From a virus (Duplodnaviria; Heunggongvirae; Uroviricota; Caudoviricetes): a stretch of DNA of 5,671 bases. A model generated the notes under the pieces. The model made no database searches and was not told where the DNA came from. It saw only the letters and a list, made by a program, of their open reading frames with translations. Position numbers and translations under genes: made by a program. The stretch lies in IMG/VR virus record IMGVR_UViG_2663763286_000017; one strand, 5' to 3'. Numbering within the stretch: the first letter of the stretch is position 1; every line of letters starts with the position of its first letter. Below are positions 469 through 5,671 of this stretch, one piece after another.

Positions 469-759
469 TCATAAATAACCGTCCTTTCTCCAGATCTCTT
501 GTGTGCGAAAAACACCTTCTGCATGCATCAGGCGCAATTCTTCTTTGGTGTAATCGCTGGTTTTTACTCTCCCGTCGATTAAATCGTGGCATGAGTTACA
601 GGCAATCGCCGCCTGCATATCGTGTGGTTTTGTCGCTGTTCCGCACGTCCCCGCCAGCCTGTAATGCGCCAGCACAGAAGTTTCGGGATTGTGATTGCAG
701 TAGCCAGGAATTCTGACTGTGCACATCTGCCCCCGCGCCGCTTTACGTAAATCCACCAT
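469..759 (-). CDS. YbcO-like (DUF1364) prophage protein, 96 aa, Cys-rich putative metal-binding/nuclease-family protein
   Basis: ATG at 759-757, TGA at 471-469. Protein MVDLRKAARGQMCTVRIPGYCNHNPETSVLAHYRLAGTCGTATKPHDMQAAIACNSCHDLIDGRVKTSDYTKEELRLMHAEGVFRTQEIWRKDGYL has five Cys and resembles E. coli DLP12 YbcO (96 aa) as I recall it. Its start overlaps the upstream gene's stop by 1 nt (TAATG). Confidence 0.75.
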   Translation of the reverse strand: MVDLRKAARGQMCTVRIPGYCNHNPETSVLAHYRLAGTCGTATKPHDMQAAIACNSCHDLIDGRVKTSDYTKEELRLMHAEGVFRTQEIWRKDGYL

Positions 760-1358
760 TACGCAAACTCCAGTAACTGCGCGGCCACATTTTCGACTTC
801 CTCCGGAGAGGAAAATTTACGGAACAGGATCCAGTTCCACAGCACATTCAGTACAGATTTATAAACCTGCTGAAACTCGGTTTCGTCCATGTTCGCAAAT
901 GCGATAGATTTTGCCCTGCGCCCACGACTACCGTCCGGATAAAAATGTTCGGTGTAAAATCCGGCCTGAATGGTTACCCATTCGCGAAAAGCGTCAAAGG
1001 ACTTGAGTAAGGCCGTATCCCGGGTTCTGCAAGTCGTAACGGTGTTAAGGTATTGCTCTGCGGCATCACTCAGGGCTGGCGTATGTTCCCGACCTACTGA
1101 TTCGCACAGGAAATCAACGAAACCGGACACCAGTTCTCGTTCGCGAGGCGTGATCGCCCCACCGTTCGGAGTCCAGTAATCGAATCCCAGTTGCAGGAGT
1201 TTGAAAAAACGCTTGTGGAACGCGTAGTTACGCACTCGCTTAAAGTCCGCGTGTATCCACTCACCTATTTTGATTTGATGCAAAAAATCGCAACTCTCCG
1301 GCGTCGCCGGGAGAAGTAATCCGGAAGAGGTTTGTTTGACCAGTTGTATATGCGCCAT
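759..1358 (-). CDS. DUF1367-family lambdoid prophage protein (nin region), ~199 aa
   Basis: Track ORF 759..1370 begins at TTG 1370; the in-frame ATG at 1358-1356 has GGAGA 5 nt upstream and is the more likely start (MAHIQLVKQTSSG...). Stop TAA 761-759. Family call (..KIGEWIHADFKRVRNYAFHKRFFKLLQLGFDYW..) is from memory; about 57% GC in a 100-nt sample. Confidence 0.65.
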   Translation of the reverse strand: MAHIQLVKQTSSGLLLPATPESCDFLHQIKIGEWIHADFKRVRNYAFHKRFFKLLQLGFDYWTPNGGAITPRERELVSGFVDFLCESVGREHTPALSDAAEQYLNTVTTCRTRDTALLKSFDAFREWVTIQAGFYTEHFYPDGSRGRRAKSIAFANMDETEFQQVYKSVLNVLWNWILFRKFSSPEEVENVAAQLLEFA

Positions 1359-1417
1359 TGCTGTCTCCAATGGCGCTGTAGGTTGCCAGTTGTTCAGGCT
1401 GGCTTACGAATTATAAC

Positions 1418-1591
1418 TCATTCCCGAATCACCTTGAAACCGAGCCTTTCAAGATATTCAATGAATGCCTCGATAGATAAAATTACATGATTATCAGGGA
1501 TTAACGTTGCGTAGATAACTTCCCCATTCTCAACGCGCACAGCATAGAGGCCATTTTCACTAAAAATTTCACGCAATTCTTCGATTTTCAT
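1418..1591 (-). CDS. Small hypothetical protein, 57 aa, acidic, soluble-looking
   Basis: Not in the supplied track (below its size cutoff). ATG at 1591-1589 with GGAAGGA 8-9 nt upstream; translation MKIEELREIFSENGLYAVRVENGEVIYATLIPDNHVILSIEAFIEYLERLGFKVIRE; stop TGA 1420-1418. About 40% GC in a 100-nt sample versus ~57% in the next gene. Confidence 0.5.
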   Translation of the reverse strand: MKIEELREIFSENGLYAVRVENGEVIYATLIPDNHVILSIEAFIEYLERLGFKVIRE

Positions 1592-1672
1592 CAACAGAAT
1601 CCTTCCAGATAAATAGCACTCCCCTGCTCGGGGTCCATCCCTCTTCTCCCTGCGCGCTACTTAAGTGCATCG

Positions 1673-1700
1673 ATTCTAGTCAGGCATACCCGCTTATCAA
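1673..1700 (-). promoter_or_regulatory. Putative sigma70 promoter for the 57-aa ORF / nin-like genes
   Basis: Minus strand reads TTGATA (revcomp of 1695-1700), a 16-nt spacer, then TAGAAT (revcomp of 1673-1678); predicted transcription start near 1665. Sequence match only. Confidence 0.35.
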
Positions 1701-1750
1701 CAAACGAAGGTCGGTTTAGTGGAGGAATCGGCTAAAACTTGATCTGTTAA

Positions 1751-1780
1751 AGTAAAAAACCCGCCGAAGCGGGTTTTTTG
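1751..1780 (-). terminator. Rho-independent terminator ending the three-gene operon (symmetric, potentially bidirectional)
   Basis: AAAAAACCCGC-CGAA-GCGGGTTTTTT: a GC stem (1760-1764 / 1769-1773) flanked by an A-run and a T-run. On the minus-strand transcript the hairpin is followed by UUUUUU, a few nt after the TAA of gene C (1787-1785). Confidence 0.8.
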
Positions 1781-1784
1781 TATA

Positions 1785-2177
1785 TTACATACTCTCAATG
1801 TCATTTTTTAGTGAGTGCTTGTGTAACTCCATGGAGTAATCAACATCACGAAGAGTTTTTTCAATCTGCTTGCTTCTCAGGGTGGCAAGCGCATTATCAA
1901 TTGACACTTTTTCTTCATCTGAAGCATCAGCTCTCATTTTCGTAAGAGTCTTACGAGCCCTTGCCACATCCACCTTGAAACGTACGTCCTCTATGCTAGG
2001 TACGTTAACAAACGTAAGAAGTAGCAAAAAGAAGTGAGCAATAACAACAGCAACCCCAGGGAGAAATGCGTTGATATCAGCAGGTAACCCAATATATGCG
2101 CTAGCCTTGACCAATAGGTAATTTGCCACCGGTGTGCACCACGCTTGGCTTGCAACATACTTAGATTGTTGAATCAT
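1785..2177 (-). CDS. Gene C of unknown operon: 130-aa predicted membrane protein (two hydrophobic helices plus charged coiled-coil-like tail)
   Basis: ATG 2177-2175 overlaps the TGA of gene B (ATGA); GAGG lies 6 nt upstream. Hydrophobic segments VANYLLVKASAYIGLP and FLPGVAVVIAHFFLLLLTFVNV, then a K/R/D/E-rich tail. Stop TAA 1787-1785. No family recognised. Confidence 0.7.
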   Translation of the reverse strand: MIQQSKYVASQAWCTPVANYLLVKASAYIGLPADINAFLPGVAVVIAHFFLLLLTFVNVPSIEDVRFKVDVARARKTLTKMRADASDEEKVSIDNALATLRSKQIEKTLRDVDYSMELHKHSLKNDIESM

Positions 2178-2413
2178 GAAGTGCCTCGCGTTAAATCACG
2201 CTGAACCTCACTCAACGTGGACGCGAGCTCACGTGCATCCTTTGCATCCAACTGAACTTCGCAATAATGCCTAACTCCACATCGATCTATATAAGTAAAT
2301 TTGAGTGTCTTACTTGGTTTAAGCCAAACCAAAAAATGATATACAGCAAAACGAGCCAACATAAAGGCGGCAACAAAAACCGTAATCATCAACATGACAC
2401 TTAAATAAGGCAT
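2174..2413 (-). CDS. Gene B of unknown operon: 79-aa small membrane protein (N-terminal TM, polar C-terminal tail with two Cys)
   Basis: ATG 2413-2411 lies 8 nt after the TAG of gene A; hydrophobic N-terminus LSVMLMITVFVAAFMLARFAVYHFLVWL; stop TGA 2176-2174 overlaps the start of gene C. No family recognised. Confidence 0.65.
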   Translation of the reverse strand: MPYLSVMLMITVFVAAFMLARFAVYHFLVWLKPSKTLKFTYIDRCGVRHYCEVQLDAKDARELASTLSEVQRDLTRGTS

Positions 2414-2421
2414 ATTATTAC

Positions 2422-3309
2422 CTATACGATTCGACGTTCAGCTGCGGCGCGATGCCGTACAACCTGCGTGATAATGTATGCTGGATTCCCCAATACACCA
2501 TTAGTTTCTTTGACTCTTTTTGTCACATTCACTACAAAAAGATCATCTTTACTGAATGACGCTTCGTTTAAATTTACTCGCTCAAGAAAACCAGCATCCG
2601 CCATCTTAACCTTTACATCCTCGCCGTCTGGCAATACCATCCTCCAATCTGTATCGGAAGTAAAGCTCAGCTTAGAAAACTTGACGTTTAAGGTCAATGA
2701 GTCTTCATGTGTATGTTGTACAACCGTATTATTCACTTTTTTAAAAGAAACAGATTGCTCTTGCGAAATAGAGACAATCTCCTCCCCACTTGAGTTTTTT
2801 ACTCTAAACGACGAGTTTTTTTCAGTTTGCAGAGGAGTGTGTACCAATTTACTCATTTCATTGCGGATCGTAGAGTTTGTAACGAGCTTTTGTACGTCAT
2901 TTGAACACTCAAATCGCTCATTATCAACAACAAAAGTCGCTCGGTTATTGGCTTCATCTATAACAACCTCATGTGGCTTTCGCCCTCGCAACCATTCTAC
3001 AACCCCAACCAAACTCCCAGCACTTGCGCCGGTGGCAACAGAAAGCCCCAAGAGTTGCAAAGTAGATAAACTACCCAAAACAGAGACAAGAACAGTAAAA
3101 GATCCTTCCTGAATTGCCTTAATACTAACCCTAGTTGTTGCAGTCTCACCGTGGATAATTTTCTCTGCATTATCAATCAAATTACTTAATGAAGACAGAG
3201 CATCACCAAGCATTTTAGCATCGATCTCATTATTCGCATATGCATCCCCAGCATATGCAATCTCAAGCTCTGTTACCTGTTGGTCGGTCATGAAGTTCAA
3301 CTCCACCAT
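2422..3309 (-). CDS. Gene A of unknown operon: 289-295 aa protein with a central small-residue-rich hydrophobic segment; function unknown
   Basis: Long minus-strand ORF. The first ATG (3309) has no Shine-Dalgarno; the second in-frame ATG (3291-3289) has GGTGGAG 9 nt upstream and is the likelier start (MTDQQVTELEIAYAG...). Stop TAG 2424-2422. Sampled GC is ~35% (2701-2800). No Walker A, HExxH or other catalytic motif seen by eye. Confidence 0.75.
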   Translation of the reverse strand: MVELNFMTDQQVTELEIAYAGDAYANNEIDAKMLGDALSSLSNLIDNAEKIIHGETATTRVSIKAIQEGSFTVLVSVLGSLSTLQLLGLSVATGASAGSLVGVVEWLRGRKPHEVVIDEANNRATFVVDNERFECSNDVQKLVTNSTIRNEMSKLVHTPLQTEKNSSFRVKNSSGEEIVSISQEQSVSFKKVNNTVVQHTHEDSLTLNVKFSKLSFTSDTDWRMVLPDGEDVKVKMADAGFLERVNLNEASFSKDDLFVVNVTKRVKETNGVLGNPAYIITQVVRHRAAAERRIV

Positions 3310-3384
3310 AAAAAATATGCAAAATAATTAACAGTATTTTCACTTTATGGCGGGTGCGTTGAGGATGCCTGACACATCAGAGGT

Positions 3385-3403
3385 GGCGGGGGTTTACCCC
3401 GCC
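3385..3403 (-). other. GC-rich stem-loop in the hok 3' UTR (7-bp stem GGCGGGG/CCCCGCC, 5-nt loop)
   Basis: Perfect inverted repeat 3385-3391 / 3397-3403, starting 8 nt downstream of the hok stop. No U-tract follows on either strand, so it is not a canonical intrinsic terminator. Its position parallels the 3' hairpin of plasmid R1 hok mRNA, from memory. Confidence 0.5.
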
Positions 3404-3410
3404 TGGTCTC

Positions 3411-3566
3411 TTACTCCTCAGGTTCGTAAGCTGTGAAGACAGCGACCTCCGTCTGGCCGGTTCGGATTCGTACCTCGCAGAGGTCTTTCCTCGTTACCAG
3501 TGCCGTCACTATGACGGTTAAACAGATGACGATCAGGGCGATTAACATCGCCTTTTGCTGCTTCAT
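3411..3566 (-). CDS. hok: Hok/Gef-family type I toxin (51 aa; closest to HokD/RelF in my memory), with an in-frame mok-like upstream extension to 3623
   Basis: ATG 3566-3564 preceded by AAGGAGAAG; protein MKQQKAMLIALIVICLTVIVTALVTRKDLCEVRIRTGQTEVAVFTAYEPEE has the Hok architecture (TM helix, then RKDLCE..R...EVA.F.AYE). Stop TAA 3413-3411. Track ORF 3411..3623 (70 aa) is the same frame from an upstream ATG, i.e. a mok-like leader ORF that here is in frame with hok. Confidence 0.88.
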   Translation of the reverse strand: MKQQKAMLIALIVICLTVIVTALVTRKDLCEVRIRTGQTEVAVFTAYEPEE

Positions 3567-3579
3567 AGCCTGCTTCTCC

Positions 3580-3608
3580 TTGCCTTTCGGCGCGTAAGAG
3601 GCTAACCT
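3580..3608 (+). promoter_or_regulatory. Putative sok-type antisense promoter (TTGCCT-17-TAACCT)
   Basis: Plus-strand TTGCCT (3580-3585), 17-nt spacer, TAACCT (3603-3608). Position and sequence parallel the R1 sok promoter as I recall it (TTGCGC-17-TATCCT), inside the start of the mok-like ORF on the opposite strand. Confidence 0.4.
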
Positions 3609-3614
3609 ACATGT

Positions 3615-3690
3615 GCAAGTCATAGATATGGCCTCAGATTAATGTTAAGCGTCTTGCCGGACGCGTAATGTTAACTGGGGCTTTTCTCTA
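3615..3690 (+). ncRNA. sok: Putative Sok-like antisense RNA (type I antitoxin), roughly 65-75 nt
   Basis: Plus-strand transcript from about 3615 would be complementary to the mok-like start and Shine-Dalgarno region of the hok mRNA. It contains a long imperfect hairpin (3641-3653 / 3660-3672, one A-G mismatch, loop TTGCCG) followed by GGGGCTTTTCTCT (3677-3689). Ends are estimated, not measured. Confidence 0.4.
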
Positions 3691-3737
3691 TCTGCCGTTG
3701 GTGTTCATGCCCGAGGCAGATAGCCTCAAGCACCCGC
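3688..3737 (-). promoter_or_regulatory. hok mRNA 5' leader elements: tac-like stem-loop and 5' fbi element pairing with the mRNA 3' end (3350-3364)
   Basis: Minus-strand RNA 5' end reads GCGGGUGCUUGAGGCUAUCUGCCUCGGGCAUGAACACCAACGGCAGAUAG, with a 9-bp hairpin CUAUCUGCC...GGCAGAUAG (3688-3696 / 3716-3724). The 5'-most 14 nt (3724-3737) are complementary to 3350-3364 (GCGGGUGC/UUGAGG against CCUCAA-C-GCACCCGC, one bulged nt), as in the fold-back-inhibition pairing of R1 hok mRNA. Confidence 0.55.
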
Positions 3738-3811: not shown

Positions 3812-3916
3812 TCAGTTCCCTAGTCGATCCATCAAAAACACAACCAGGCAGTAAACGCCCACAACAGCAATAACAGCCAGCGCACCTTCCATTGCCAGTG
3901 AAATATCATCCGACAT
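3812..3916 (-). CDS. Tiny hydrophobic ORF, 34 aa (single predicted TM helix)
   Basis: Not in the track. ATG 3916-3914 with AAAGGAGGG 4-5 nt upstream; translation MSDDISLAMEGALAVIAVVGVYCLVVFLMDRLGN; stop TGA 3814-3812. Confidence 0.4.
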   Translation of the reverse strand: MSDDISLAMEGALAVIAVVGVYCLVVFLMDRLGN

Positions 3917-3951
3917 ATTCCCTCCTTTGGTGTTAATCCCGGCGAACGTTT

Positions 3952-4035
3952 TTACCCCCACCGACAAATAACATATACTAAAAAAGCGATAGCCATAGCA
4001 ACGCCTGTAATTGCAAATGCTTCAGGCCAGTTCAT
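3952..4035 (-). CDS. Tiny hydrophobic ORF, 27 aa (single predicted TM helix), translationally coupled to the DUF551 gene
   Basis: Not in the track. ATG 4035-4033 overlaps the TGA (4034-4032) of the upstream gene as ATGA; consensus AGGAGGT lies 6 nt upstream; translation MNWPEAFAITGVAMAIAFLVYVICRWG; stop TAA 3954-3952. Confidence 0.45.
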   Translation of the reverse strand: MNWPEAFAITGVAMAIAFLVYVICRWG

Positions 4036-4616
4036 TGGCGCACCTCCTGCGGCGGTTCTGGTAGCGGCATCCAGTCGGTTACATTGCGGCTCTGTGTTTC
4101 GAAAAATTCATCACCATCACGGACTACATCAAAAAACTCACCGTCTCGATATTGCGCATAAAGAACGAATGCGCCATCACATAAAATAATTACGTGCTGA
4201 CAGTCATCCGGCATTCGCTCACTACAGCTTATCCAACCATCCAGAGTTACCGGATAGTTGGTTGACGTTTCCGAGATTTCCCGAAAATTATTGGTTGACG
4301 AACCCTTCTTTTCCCGAAAGTTTCCAGCCTGAAGCATGGCGGCGCTGTCTGGCGGGGCAGCATATAGCGGCACGTATATTTCCGGTTCCTTATCAGCACC
4401 GGGTTGCTCTTCCAGTGAGAATGTCTTTCCGGTAAATCGATTCATATAAAGCACGGGCTCTGCTTCCAGCGAAGCCTGAGCAACAAGGGCCAGTGCTAAA
4501 TCCAACTCAATTGCCTCGAGAGAATTTTTGAATGCTGTCTGTTTTACTGCAAATTTCATCGCCTTTACATTTTCACTAACATGACTGATTAACTGCTCTT
4601 TTGTAAAAGTGGTCAT
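4032..4616 (-). CDS. DUF551-domain prophage protein (~194 aa from ATG 4616; track ORF extends to GTG 4676)
   Basis: C-terminal region ...DGWISCSERMPDDCQHVIILCDGAFVLYAQYRDGEFFDVVRDGDEFFETQSRNVTDWMPLPEPPQ matches the DUF551 signature (W-I-S...MPLPEPP at the C-terminus of prophage proteins), from memory. In-frame ATG 4616-4614 has AAGGAGA about 6 nt upstream; the track start at 4676 is GTG overlapping the upstream stop (GTGA), so both starts are possible. Sampled GC ~55%. Confidence 0.7.
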   Translation of the reverse strand: MTTFTKEQLISHVSENVKAMKFAVKQTAFKNSLEAIELDLALALVAQASLEAEPVLYMNRFTGKTFSLEEQPGADKEPEIYVPLYAAPPDSAAMLQAGNFREKKGSSTNNFREISETSTNYPVTLDGWISCSERMPDDCQHVIILCDGAFVLYAQYRDGEFFDVVRDGDEFFETQSRNVTDWMPLPEPPQEVRQ

Positions 4617-4672
4617 CTCATTCTCCTTTGATGCGAATGCCAGCGACAATTGAAGCCTGATAGCTAATTCAC

Positions 4673-5068
4673 TCACAGTACCGCCTCCTGAAAATTGCCC
4701 TGATAGAACGCCAGTACACGCAGCATAACTTCACTCTTCCGGCACTCGCCACAGATTATGTTCTGTTGTCTGTCGTAGCGGCGTATTTCTCCGTCTGGTA
4801 ACTTTCGAATCAATGTCTGGTCGGTTGTTTTCTCCGCTGCCTTACGCCATACGCGATACACCTGTTCTGATGTAAAAACACCGTATTTACCGGGCATGTA
4901 TAAATCGCCACAAGCCAGTACATCCACAAGGCAACGTCTGACTGAATGCCAGCCTGCTCCCGTCGCTCTCTCCAGTTGTGATATCGTCATGCGTTCATTT
5001 TTGCGTACCAGCCCGATAATTCGGGCCTTCAGTTCTTCACGCTGTTCGTGTGTAAAAGGTTTCGCCAT
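4673..5068 (-). CDS. Hypothetical prophage protein (~131 aa from ATG 5068; track ORF starts at TTG 5083), possible HTH segment
   Basis: ATG 5068-5066 has GGAGG 5 nt upstream (MAKPFTHEQREELKARIIGLVRKNERMTISQLERATGAGWHSVRRC...); stop TGA 4675-4673. No family confidently recognised. Confidence 0.6.
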   Translation of the reverse strand: MAKPFTHEQREELKARIIGLVRKNERMTISQLERATGAGWHSVRRCLVDVLACGDLYMPGKYGVFTSEQVYRVWRKAAEKTTDQTLIRKLPDGEIRRYDRQQNIICGECRKSEVMLRVLAFYQGNFQEAVL

Positions 5069-5083
5069 AAGCGCCTCCGGCAA

Positions 5084-5290
5084 TCACTTTTCCGACACAA
5101 TACGACCGGATGAATCGACAATCTGCCGAACAATATCCCGGTGCTTGTTCAGCTCCCGCAGCGCGGCGCAGACTCGCTCCCACTTCTGAACATCACTTTT
5201 CGCCCTGCGCAGCGCCAGGTTTGCCCTGCGAAGGGACGGAAAAATCAGCTCATCTGCTTGCGTTTCGGTAAACGATGGCAACGGCTGCAC
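5084..5290 (-). pseudogene. 3' portion (~68 codons) of a phage gene interrupted by the IS629-like insertion
   Basis: The minus-strand frame is open from 5290 to TGA 5086-5084 and continues without a start codon into the IS terminal sequence. Track ORF 5084..5383 takes its first 31 codons from inside the IS end, so the native 5' part must lie beyond the IS. Confidence 0.5.
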
Positions 5291-5671
5291 TGAACCGCCC
5301 CGGAAATCCTGGAGACTAAACTCCCTGAGAAAGAGGTAAACAGGATGACTAAAAATACACGTTTTTCCCCCGAGGTCCGTCAACGGGCAGTTCGTATGGT
5401 TCTGGAAAGTCAGGGCGAATATGACTCACAATGGGCGGCAATTTGTTCCATTGCCCCAAAGATTGGCTGTACACCAGAGACTCTGCGTGTGTGGGTTCGT
5501 CAGCATGAGCGGGATACCGGGAGTGGTGATGGTGGACTCACCACCGCTGAACGTCAGCGTCTGAAAGAGCTGGAACGTGAAAATCGTGAACTGCGCCGCA
5601 GTAACGATATCCTTCGCCAGGCTTCCGCTTATTTTGCGAAGGCGGAGTTCGACCGCCTCTGGAAAAAATGA
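5291..5671 (+). mobile_element. Left end of an IS629-like (IS3 family) insertion sequence; body continues right of window
   Basis: The terminal sequence TGAACCGCCCCGG... begins at 5291 (IS3-family ends start with TG) and orfA starts 54 nt inside. The orfA protein matches IS629/IS1203-type OrfA, from memory. Confidence 0.8.
5345..5671 (+). CDS. IS3-family transposase OrfA (IS629-like), 108 aa, HTH DNA-binding subunit
   Basis: ATG 5345 with GAGG upstream; protein [108 protein letters not shown]; stop TGA 5669-5671. The A-run GGAAAAAATGA at the 3' end is where an IS3-type -1 frameshift into orfB would be expected. Confidence 0.9.

Follow-up and report, generated by a model that had tools for sequence, protein, structure and literature searches.

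An AT-rich interval beside hok/sok in an Escherichia coli lambdoid prophage: rem and a rare three-gene moron in a probable cargo hotspot

Phage morons, a concept associated with Hendrix and Juhala and reviewed in "The moron comes of age" (PMC3594210), are stretches of extra DNA lying between elements that are adjacent in relatives. Hotspots that hold defence systems have been described in P2-like phages and P4 satellites, including the P2 gpA-portal hotspot (Rousset et al. 2022, PMC9122126), and the mRNAs of hok loci are known to carry two end-pairing elements, tac and fbi (PMC9841398). Here we compare with these systems an AT-rich tract in the IMG/VR virus record IMGVR_UViG_2663763286_000017, a stretch of 5,671 nucleotides (hereafter the window, meaning the whole stretch of DNA analysed) that is a fragment of an E. 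coli lambdoid prophage of the Rac/Qin type. All genes of interest lie on its minus strand. The tract is very probably a variable interval between two anchors, a DUF1367 gene and a hok/sok locus, composed of two independent modules: the small gene rem, and a moron of three genes (named A, B and C here) sitting in a hotspot. The first module (1418 to about 1753) would consist of rem with its own promoter, as a common but exchangeable part of the backbone; the second (1777-3346) would be a rare 1.57-kb moron, co-oriented with hok and placed between its fold-back element (fbi) and a hairpin. In kind, the tract itself is ordinary, a moron in a prophage hotspot.

The limits of the moron were obtained from relatives in which the site is empty. 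In strain 2013C-3342 (L007) window position 1776 is joined directly to 3344, and in BCE049 (L008) position 1775 is joined to 3350; both are collinear with the window from 310 up to the empty junction, and then from 3344 or 3350 onward. The same right junction, 3350, was found in strain 2014C-3061 (L002) and in phage PPompW (L003). Base by base, the empty sites read ...AAAAACCCGCCGAAGCGGGTT-AAGT-GCGGGTGCGTTGAGG..., and the filled site of the window reads ...AAAAAACCCGCCGAAGCGGGTT, then the insert, TTTTGTATATT ... CACTTTATG, and then GCGGGTGCGTTGAGG.... From this comparison the insert is therefore 1777-3346 (1570 bp). Its left junction (1776/1777) falls within the tail of a terminator, and the 4 nt that separate hairpin and fbi at the empty sites are replaced in the window, not duplicated. 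The insert is present in 4 of 5426 complete E. coli genomes. A synthetic empty-site query, in which rem, the spacer and the hairpin were joined to hok, was matched in one place at a coverage of at least 80% in 95 of the 5426, and 4722 genomes match the query at all, most of them aligning from the hairpin onward. The features of the window are as follows.

469-759, minus strand: YbcO/DUF1364 gene.
759-1370, minus strand: DUF1367 gene, the conserved left anchor of the variable region (Pfam PF07105, E=8e-97).
1418-1594, minus strand: rem, 58 aa from a TTG at 1594 or 57 aa from an ATG at 1591 (phrog_340).
1673-1700, minus strand: sigma-70-like candidate promoter upstream of rem, TTGATA-16-TAGAAT (10/12 consensus match).
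1754-1779, no strand assigned: hairpin with perfect 11-bp arms, AAAAAACCCGC-CGAA-GCGGGTTTTTT (inverted-repeat search).
1777-3346, minus strand: inserted cargo (moron), 1570 bp, 40.8% GC (junctions in empty-site relatives).
1785-2177, minus strand: gene C, 130 aa (phrog_26468, E=2e-9; hydropathy).
2174-2413, minus strand: gene B, 79 aa (phrog_27630, E=6e-13; hydropathy).
2422-3291, minus strand: gene A, 289 aa, PDC-S42/LAPAL family (homolog starts).
3351-3363, minus strand: fbi element of the hok mRNA (minimum-energy fold).
3347-3735, minus strand: hok/mok/sok locus, the conserved right anchor (Pfam HOK_GEF and Rfam RF01794).
3411-3566, 3411-3623 and 3561-3735, minus strand: hok, mok and the leader/sok region, respectively.

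A first-pass annotation of the window had delimited the tract at 1418-3340 from hand counts of guanine-plus-cytosine (GC) content in 100-nt samples, all within 3 points of the exact values (35% at 2701-2800, 40% at 1441-1540, 53% at 1601-1700 and 55% at 4301-4400; 54% instead of about 57% at 1001-1100, and 57% instead of about 55% at 3441-3540). These limits proved essentially optimal: the best two-boundary GC segmentation gives 1406-3350, and segmentation in 50-nt blocks gives 1401-3350 with a log-likelihood ratio of 22.9, a score reached in 0 of 2000 block permutations (maximum 17.2). A contiguous low-GC tract is thus real, at about 41% against about 50% GC, and 100-nt windows inside and outside it differ (Mann-Whitney p=1.4e-4). 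The background of about 55% GC had been put too high, because the sampled spots happened to be GC-rich; the backbone is actually at 49-52%, or about 50%. By segment, the GC content is 50.5% in the left backbone (310-1417), 38.4% in the rem open reading frame (ORF; 1418-1594), 48.9% in the spacer (1595-1776), 40.8% in the insert, 51.7% in the hok locus and 48.8% in the right backbone (3831-5344), so that the reported normal-GC spacer between two AT-rich coding segments holds as well. At third codon positions, the four AT-rich genes have a GC fraction of 0.36-0.40, compared with 0.44-0.66 for the backbone genes. A simple GC scan can therefore locate moron boundaries nearly to the base, and the signal here flags an accessory slot delimited by recombination.

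The same composition might be expected if the three genes were ancestral and the empty sites deletions, with the low GC following from gene content (small membrane proteins); the cargo bears no mobility signature, and two of its three products are hydrophobic. However, the gene for protein A, which is soluble, is as AT-rich as the two small membrane-protein genes, and homologous trios in unrelated phages and islands are AT-shifted each time, their GC content being lower by 2-13 points than that of one or both flanks wherever they were compared. Moreover, the cargo occurs in only 4 of the 5426 genomes, whereas the arrangement without it, fbi and the hairpin separated by 4 nt, is the norm across unrelated backbones (99 of 117 loci, thousands of genomes). 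An ancestral trio is for these reasons very improbable.

The AT-rich ORF at the left end of the tract is, judging from its similarity to known genes, rem, which is a small prophage gene rich in AT. It has a phrog_340 match with E=1.4e-18, and at the DNA level it shares 80.8% identity with a gene in the same position in phage Rac-SA53 that is annotated as rem (58 aa). The gene order of Rac-SA53 is DUF1367(irsA)-rem-hok, with an empty site, and the location between DUF1367/ydfU and hok is conserved, as for Rem of the Qin and Rac prophages. In the empty-site relatives, rem and the spacer upstream of it are kept at 92-98% identity, and rem itself at 94-98%. This conserved spacer contains the TTGATA-16-TAGAAT site, which may act as the promoter of rem.

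It had been proposed that this ORF belongs to the same acquired cargo as the three-gene operon, in one block spanning 1418-3340. Both parts are AT-rich with a similar third-position GC, the best single low-GC segment covers the two, and some relatives do show a mosaic junction at 1417. The distribution of the two parts nevertheless contradicts the proposal. Rem is found beside an empty site in strains 2014C-3061, 2013C-3342 and BCE049 as well as in phage Rac-SA53, and beside a different cargo with a Doc-family toxin in strain 13E0780 (L004); conversely, the operon occurs without rem in at least seven loci (L006, L129, L133, L136, L141, L144 and L146). Since each occurs without the other, they are not one cargo, and within the window they are separated by the conserved spacer of about 50% GC, with its promoter-like site and the terminator. 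The single-block explanation is refuted by the empty-site and rem-less loci, and we regard it as almost certainly wrong. The left edge near 1417 accordingly has two readings. As the junction of the operon, which lies at 1776/1777, it does not stand; as a mosaic breakpoint it does, given that collinear homology stops at 1416-1417 in two loci (L088 and L095), where a different AT-rich segment takes the place of rem. Homology to the window ends at 1381 in three others (L035, L047 and L068), and further mosaic breakpoints were found at 1524, 1665 and 1679-1687. The breakpoints at 1416-1417 and 1381 mean that rem is itself an exchangeable AT-rich module that was acquired separately. Backbones of the DUF968 type may or may not carry, at the same place, small genes resembling rem, of 55-64 aa and 36-43% GC. 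As a whole, 1418-3349 is thus a variable region between anchors, made of separately exchanged modules.

At the right anchor, the Hok peptide was identified by Pfam (HOK_GEF, PF01848, E=3e-23) and the leader/sok region by Rfam (RF01794; 108 bits, gathering score 59); a hokD gene has been annotated by PGAP at the matching place in locus L001. The Rfam placement of the leader/sok region at 3561-3735 implies that the hok mRNA starts at 3735. In the minimum-energy fold of 3735 to 3347, the 5' sequence GGGUGCUUGAGG pairs with the 3' sequence CCUCAACGCACCC at 3363-3351 (z=-6.5), corresponding to tac and fbi. The cargo begins 4-5 nt past fbi (junction at 3346-3350), so the first-pass annotation, which had the hok mRNA end at about 3350 and the right edge of the tract fall just after it, is right to within a few bases. 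Of 117 hok loci from IMG/VR, 99 have the hairpin CCCGCCGAAGCGGG directly 3' of fbi, a few bases away, an order that is the norm across several unrelated left-hand backbones. Reading along the strand of hok, a U-run comes after the hairpin, which would therefore most simply be the hok terminator. In the window, the hairpin and its T-run are located 5 nt beyond the stop codon of gene C, and inverted-repeat and signal scans detected no terminator-like site between fbi and gene A. With the hairpin 1.57 kb away and no such site in between, the cargo appears to have been placed between hok and its terminator, and the usual terminator of hok would now end the cargo operon. This displacement raises the question whether the 3' end of the hok mRNA must be close to the fold-back element.

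Three further observations concern the hok surroundings. A match to the small RNA RsmY at 1755-1832 (20 bits, where the gathering score is 57) was rejected, as it corresponds to the terminator hairpin. In three loci (L049, L079 and L108) an insertion of about 20 nt in the loop of the terminator hairpin (CCCGCCGAAACGCTGAGAGATCACAGCGATGGGCGGG) produces a longer stem-loop at the same place beside the hok 3' end. Finally, a 34-aa hydrophobic ORF (window 3812-3916, minus strand), located just upstream of the hok promoter region and inside a listed 51-aa ORF (3812-3967), is conserved beside hok and has been annotated as WP_001278450.1 (hypothetical protein) in many genomes.

The position immediately 3' of hok turned out to be a recurrent site of cargo. 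We surveyed 80 IMG/VR loci with 2.5 kb or more of sequence on the left side of hok, chosen by the exact hok 3' pattern. About 41 were empty, 13 with a rem-type and 28 with a DUF968-type (p92) backbone, and at least ten different cargos were found among the filled ones: a Doc-family toxin with a small ORF, a 130-aa lipoprotein, a BOF/YgiW protein, HicAB, a helix-turn-helix (HTH) protein with an M78 peptidase, two different Rosmer systems, a pair of 181 and 110 aa, a 693-aa type IIG enzyme and, in one locus (L048), the A-B-C trio. Profile searches support these assignments, with RmrA at E=4e-201, RmrT at E=7e-93, a second Rosmer variant and REase_MTase_IIG at E=5e-234, and Fic/Doc, HicA, BOF and M78 were confirmed in the same way. 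The sampled cargo regions have a GC content of 42-44%. The view that foreign cargo has been acquired in modular fashion at a fixed prophage site, put forward in the first-pass annotation, is thus borne out by the existence of empty-site relatives and of at least ten unrelated cargos in the same slot elsewhere; alignment to prophages lacking the insert, which it had proposed, gave the junctions at 1776/1777 and 3346. In the literature searched we found no paper on a hotspot or moron adjacent to hok, and the hotspot at the hok 3' end, which is cleanly delimited, is apparently undescribed.

How cargo enters the slot may be considered in the light of the hairpin. Thirteen loci have the hairpin beside hok and a second copy of about 22 bp beyond the cargo, which resembles a target duplication and would fit delivery by a transposon, an integron-like element or a site-specific system that targets the terminator hairpin. 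On the other hand, the window holds a single copy of the hairpin, and the 4 nt between hairpin and fbi were replaced; comparison of the ends and junctions of the insert revealed neither terminal inverted repeats nor a target duplication, and the ORF list and Pfam searches showed no transposase ORF between 1777 and 3346, nor any transposase or recombinase within or next to the cargo. A transposon origin was rejected on these grounds, and targeted delivery in general seems quite improbable. Most probably the cargo arrived through recombination between prophages, in which hok and the short hairpin, at its two sides, would have served as homology. As to the paired copies themselves, two direct repeats of the hairpin flank Doc, Rosmer, HTH-M78 and lipoprotein cargos (L004, at 2973-2996 and 3815-3838, L019, L025, L026, L042, L096 and others), while the cargo of the window has the distal copy only. 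Such pairs could stem from recombination at the hairpin or from a selective advantage of each unit having its own terminator.

Because the slot already holds Rosmer, type IIG restriction-modification and toxin-antitoxin modules, it may be mined for new defence genes. It is easily searched, as the interval from the hok fold-back element to a DUF1367 or DUF968-type gene, and such mining would apply to E. coli prophages including those of Shiga-toxin-producing strains.

The largest gene of the moron, gene A, starts at 3291 (MTDQQ...) as in all homologs, although the ORF list extends it to 3309 (295 aa). Its product matches the PADLOC model PDC-S42 (E=1.2e-46, covering 279 of 295 residues), the NCBIfam family "LAPAL motif-containing putative phage structural protein" (E=1e-61) and phrog_3243; a Pfam search found no domain in it, and a PADLOC search gave no match other than PDC-S42. 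An exhaustive profile search recovered 4497 cluster representatives of the family, nearly all of 280-320 aa, of which a first word-indexed protein search, with 31 clusters, had given too small a picture. PDC-S42 models match all 76 of the relatives sampled, and a tblastn search of A against 50,697 phage records returned one weak match, in a Vibrio phage. The predicted structure, of high confidence and with no solved relative, suggests an OB-like domain. A hydropathy peak at residues 65-100 had hinted at a membrane hairpin, but in the deep-alignment model this segment folds into the globular core, with a predicted local distance difference test score (pLDDT) above 85 for most of its length, and the idea of A as a membrane protein was dropped. 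Gene B begins 8 nt after the stop of A and encodes, according to hydropathy, one N-terminal transmembrane helix; it has not been annotated by PGAP in identical genomes. The start of gene C overlaps the stop of B (ATGA), and hydropathy indicates for its product an N-terminal half that is hydrophobic and a C-terminal half that is helical.

B and C are conserved partners of A in seven contexts, and the order and sizes of the three genes are conserved down to 26% identity. These contexts include an island of Enterobacter hormaechei, a lambdoid prophage of E. coli H26 (between Q and the holin, on the strand opposite to the lysis genes), a Mu-like phage with the trio directly upstream of holin-SLT, another Mu-like phage (L141) with the trio between G-like and protease/capsid genes, a phage immunity region, and the gpA-portal hotspot of a P2-like prophage, where the trio is 26% identical. 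A is also found alone in two loci (L135 and L143), beside UvrD and AAA_15 genes in a Halomonadaceae genome and, in the other, after a CI-type repressor. The A-B-C cassette is thus a portable unit of temperate phages (lambdoid, Mu-like and P2-like).

Some of its neighbours deserve mention in their own right. In the E. hormaechei island (L129-L132, 3747-4499) the gene next to the trio, on the opposite strand, encodes 250 aa that include an OB-fold "tRNA_anti-like" domain; the island also contains genes for a resolvase and a VapE-like primase, and may be another accessory or defence cluster. In the P2-like prophage (L146, 2978-3732) a DUF8209 and DUF1493 pair lies directly upstream of the trio and may be a separate two-gene cassette.

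The most likely role of A-B-C, although put forward tentatively and with somewhat less than an even chance of being correct, is that of an anti-phage or superinfection-exclusion system expressed in the lysogen. The case for defence derives from the location of the trio in four kinds of accessory or defence slot, the candidate status of A in PADLOC and the combination of a soluble protein with membrane proteins. In such a system, soluble A, with its OB-like domain, would be the sensor of infection, while B and C, as small membrane proteins, would act on the membrane. Expression could plausibly be provided by read-through transcription from hok into A-B-C. The more specific picture of an undescribed three-component abortive-infection or exclusion system, having an OB-like sensor and two membrane effectors and riding on a constitutive hok transcript, at an undescribed hotspot at the hok 3' end, is less likely than not to be correct.

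Alternatively, A-B-C could be a module for lysis control, membrane remodelling or virion association that happens to use accessory slots. Its neighbours in several phages are consistent with this: the trio precedes holin-SLT in one Mu-like phage, is next to the holin in H26 and lies between Mu G and protease/capsid genes in L141. Two small membrane-protein partners are also what holins and spanins would look like, and the NCBIfam name of A refers to a putative structural protein. Against this, the trio is optional in otherwise collinear phages; it also occupies places that have to do with neither lysis nor structure, namely the hok slot, a genomic island and the gpA-portal hotspot of P2, and A is found after a CI repressor; in H26 it is opposite in strand to the lysis genes; Pfam gave no holin or spanin matches; and the other cargo at the hok slot is defence or toxin-antitoxin. 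A role outside defence consequently seems unlikely, although less so than the alternatives on origin discussed above.

Several points weigh against our interpretation of the moron, and of a defence role in particular. Entries of the PDC type, PDC-S42 among them, are predictions never verified by experiment, and two others showed no activity when tested (PMC12409345). The family of A carries the structural-protein label, one trio is inside the head-gene block of a Mu-like phage, and some contexts adjoin lysis genes. A consensus promoter scan of 3291-3350 found no promoter, with only weak candidates recognisable by eye, so that expression of the operon in lysogens is hypothetical; the region upstream of gene A is poorly conserved between the window and L006. 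The hotspot survey comprises about 80 pattern-selected loci and is no exhaustive census, and the case for gain of the cargo here over loss elsewhere is one of frequency and parsimony and does not draw on a phylogeny.

A literature search found no publication that mentions PDC-S42 or the "LAPAL motif", nor did the papers searched contain a phage-challenge test of the cassette. The three-gene "3HP" system of Rousset et al. (hp+hp+hp, E. coli E1114, about 340/360/228 aa) was considered and rejected as the counterpart of the trio, whose products have 289/79/130 aa; none of the supplementary tables of that study contains the conserved motifs of A, nor did its cloned systems include the trio. The cassette is compact (1.5 kb, three genes), belongs to a family of more than 4,000 sequence clusters and would be cheap to test.

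The remainder of the window shows the ends of the prophage fragment. Beyond hok/mok, the gene order is DUF551, DUF977 and then a DUF1627 fragment. Positions 1-309 correspond to the 3' end of a transposase gene (ORF 54-272, ...NYLFFGSDHGGERGALLYSLIGTCKLNGVEPE...), assigned by eye to the IS66 family. Prophage homology begins abruptly at 310, from which it follows that an IS66-family element cut the DUF1133 gene that precedes YbcO in relatives. At the other end, an IS3-family element from about 5291 to 5671 interrupts the DUF1627 gene, with an IS1203/IS629-like orfA from 5345 and an ALIL frameshift pseudoknot at 5626-5671 (49 bits). In F3113, the closest complete genome, a copy of IS1203 is found further along instead, splitting a YdaU-family gene.

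When compared with described systems, the locus shares much with each of them and departs from each in some respect. As in other hok/sok type I toxin-antitoxin loci (R1 parB, chromosomal hokD), the window contains an intact hok, the overlapping mok, a sok region and the tac/fbi pairing; unlike the norm, its usual terminator is 1.57 kb from hok, which calls for another way of forming the 3' end of a full-length hok mRNA here. As in phage morons, the insert is extra DNA between elements that are adjacent in relatives, has a GC content unlike that of its neighbours and ends in a terminator, but no recognisable promoter of its own was found and its terminator is the displaced one of hok; the insert may therefore be a transcriptional extension of hok and not an independent unit. 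As in the defence hotspots of P2-like phages and P4 satellites, the slot is fixed, lies between conserved anchors and receives many unrelated cassettes, including validated defence systems, the difference being that it belongs to Rac/Qin-like lambdoid phages and is bounded by DUF1367 or p92/DUF968 on one side and hok/sok on the other. PDC-S42 presumably represents a single-gene candidate, to read the "S" in its name, whereas A, here and in seven other contexts, is accompanied by two membrane-protein genes. The trio has no sequence or fold homology to RexA or RexB, and the comparison with lambda RexAB is by analogy only: both combine a soluble protein of about 280 aa with one or more small membrane proteins in an optional accessory cassette of a prophage. 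In lambda, rexA lies directly downstream of the CI repressor, and one relative of A is found directly downstream of a CI-type repressor in the same way.

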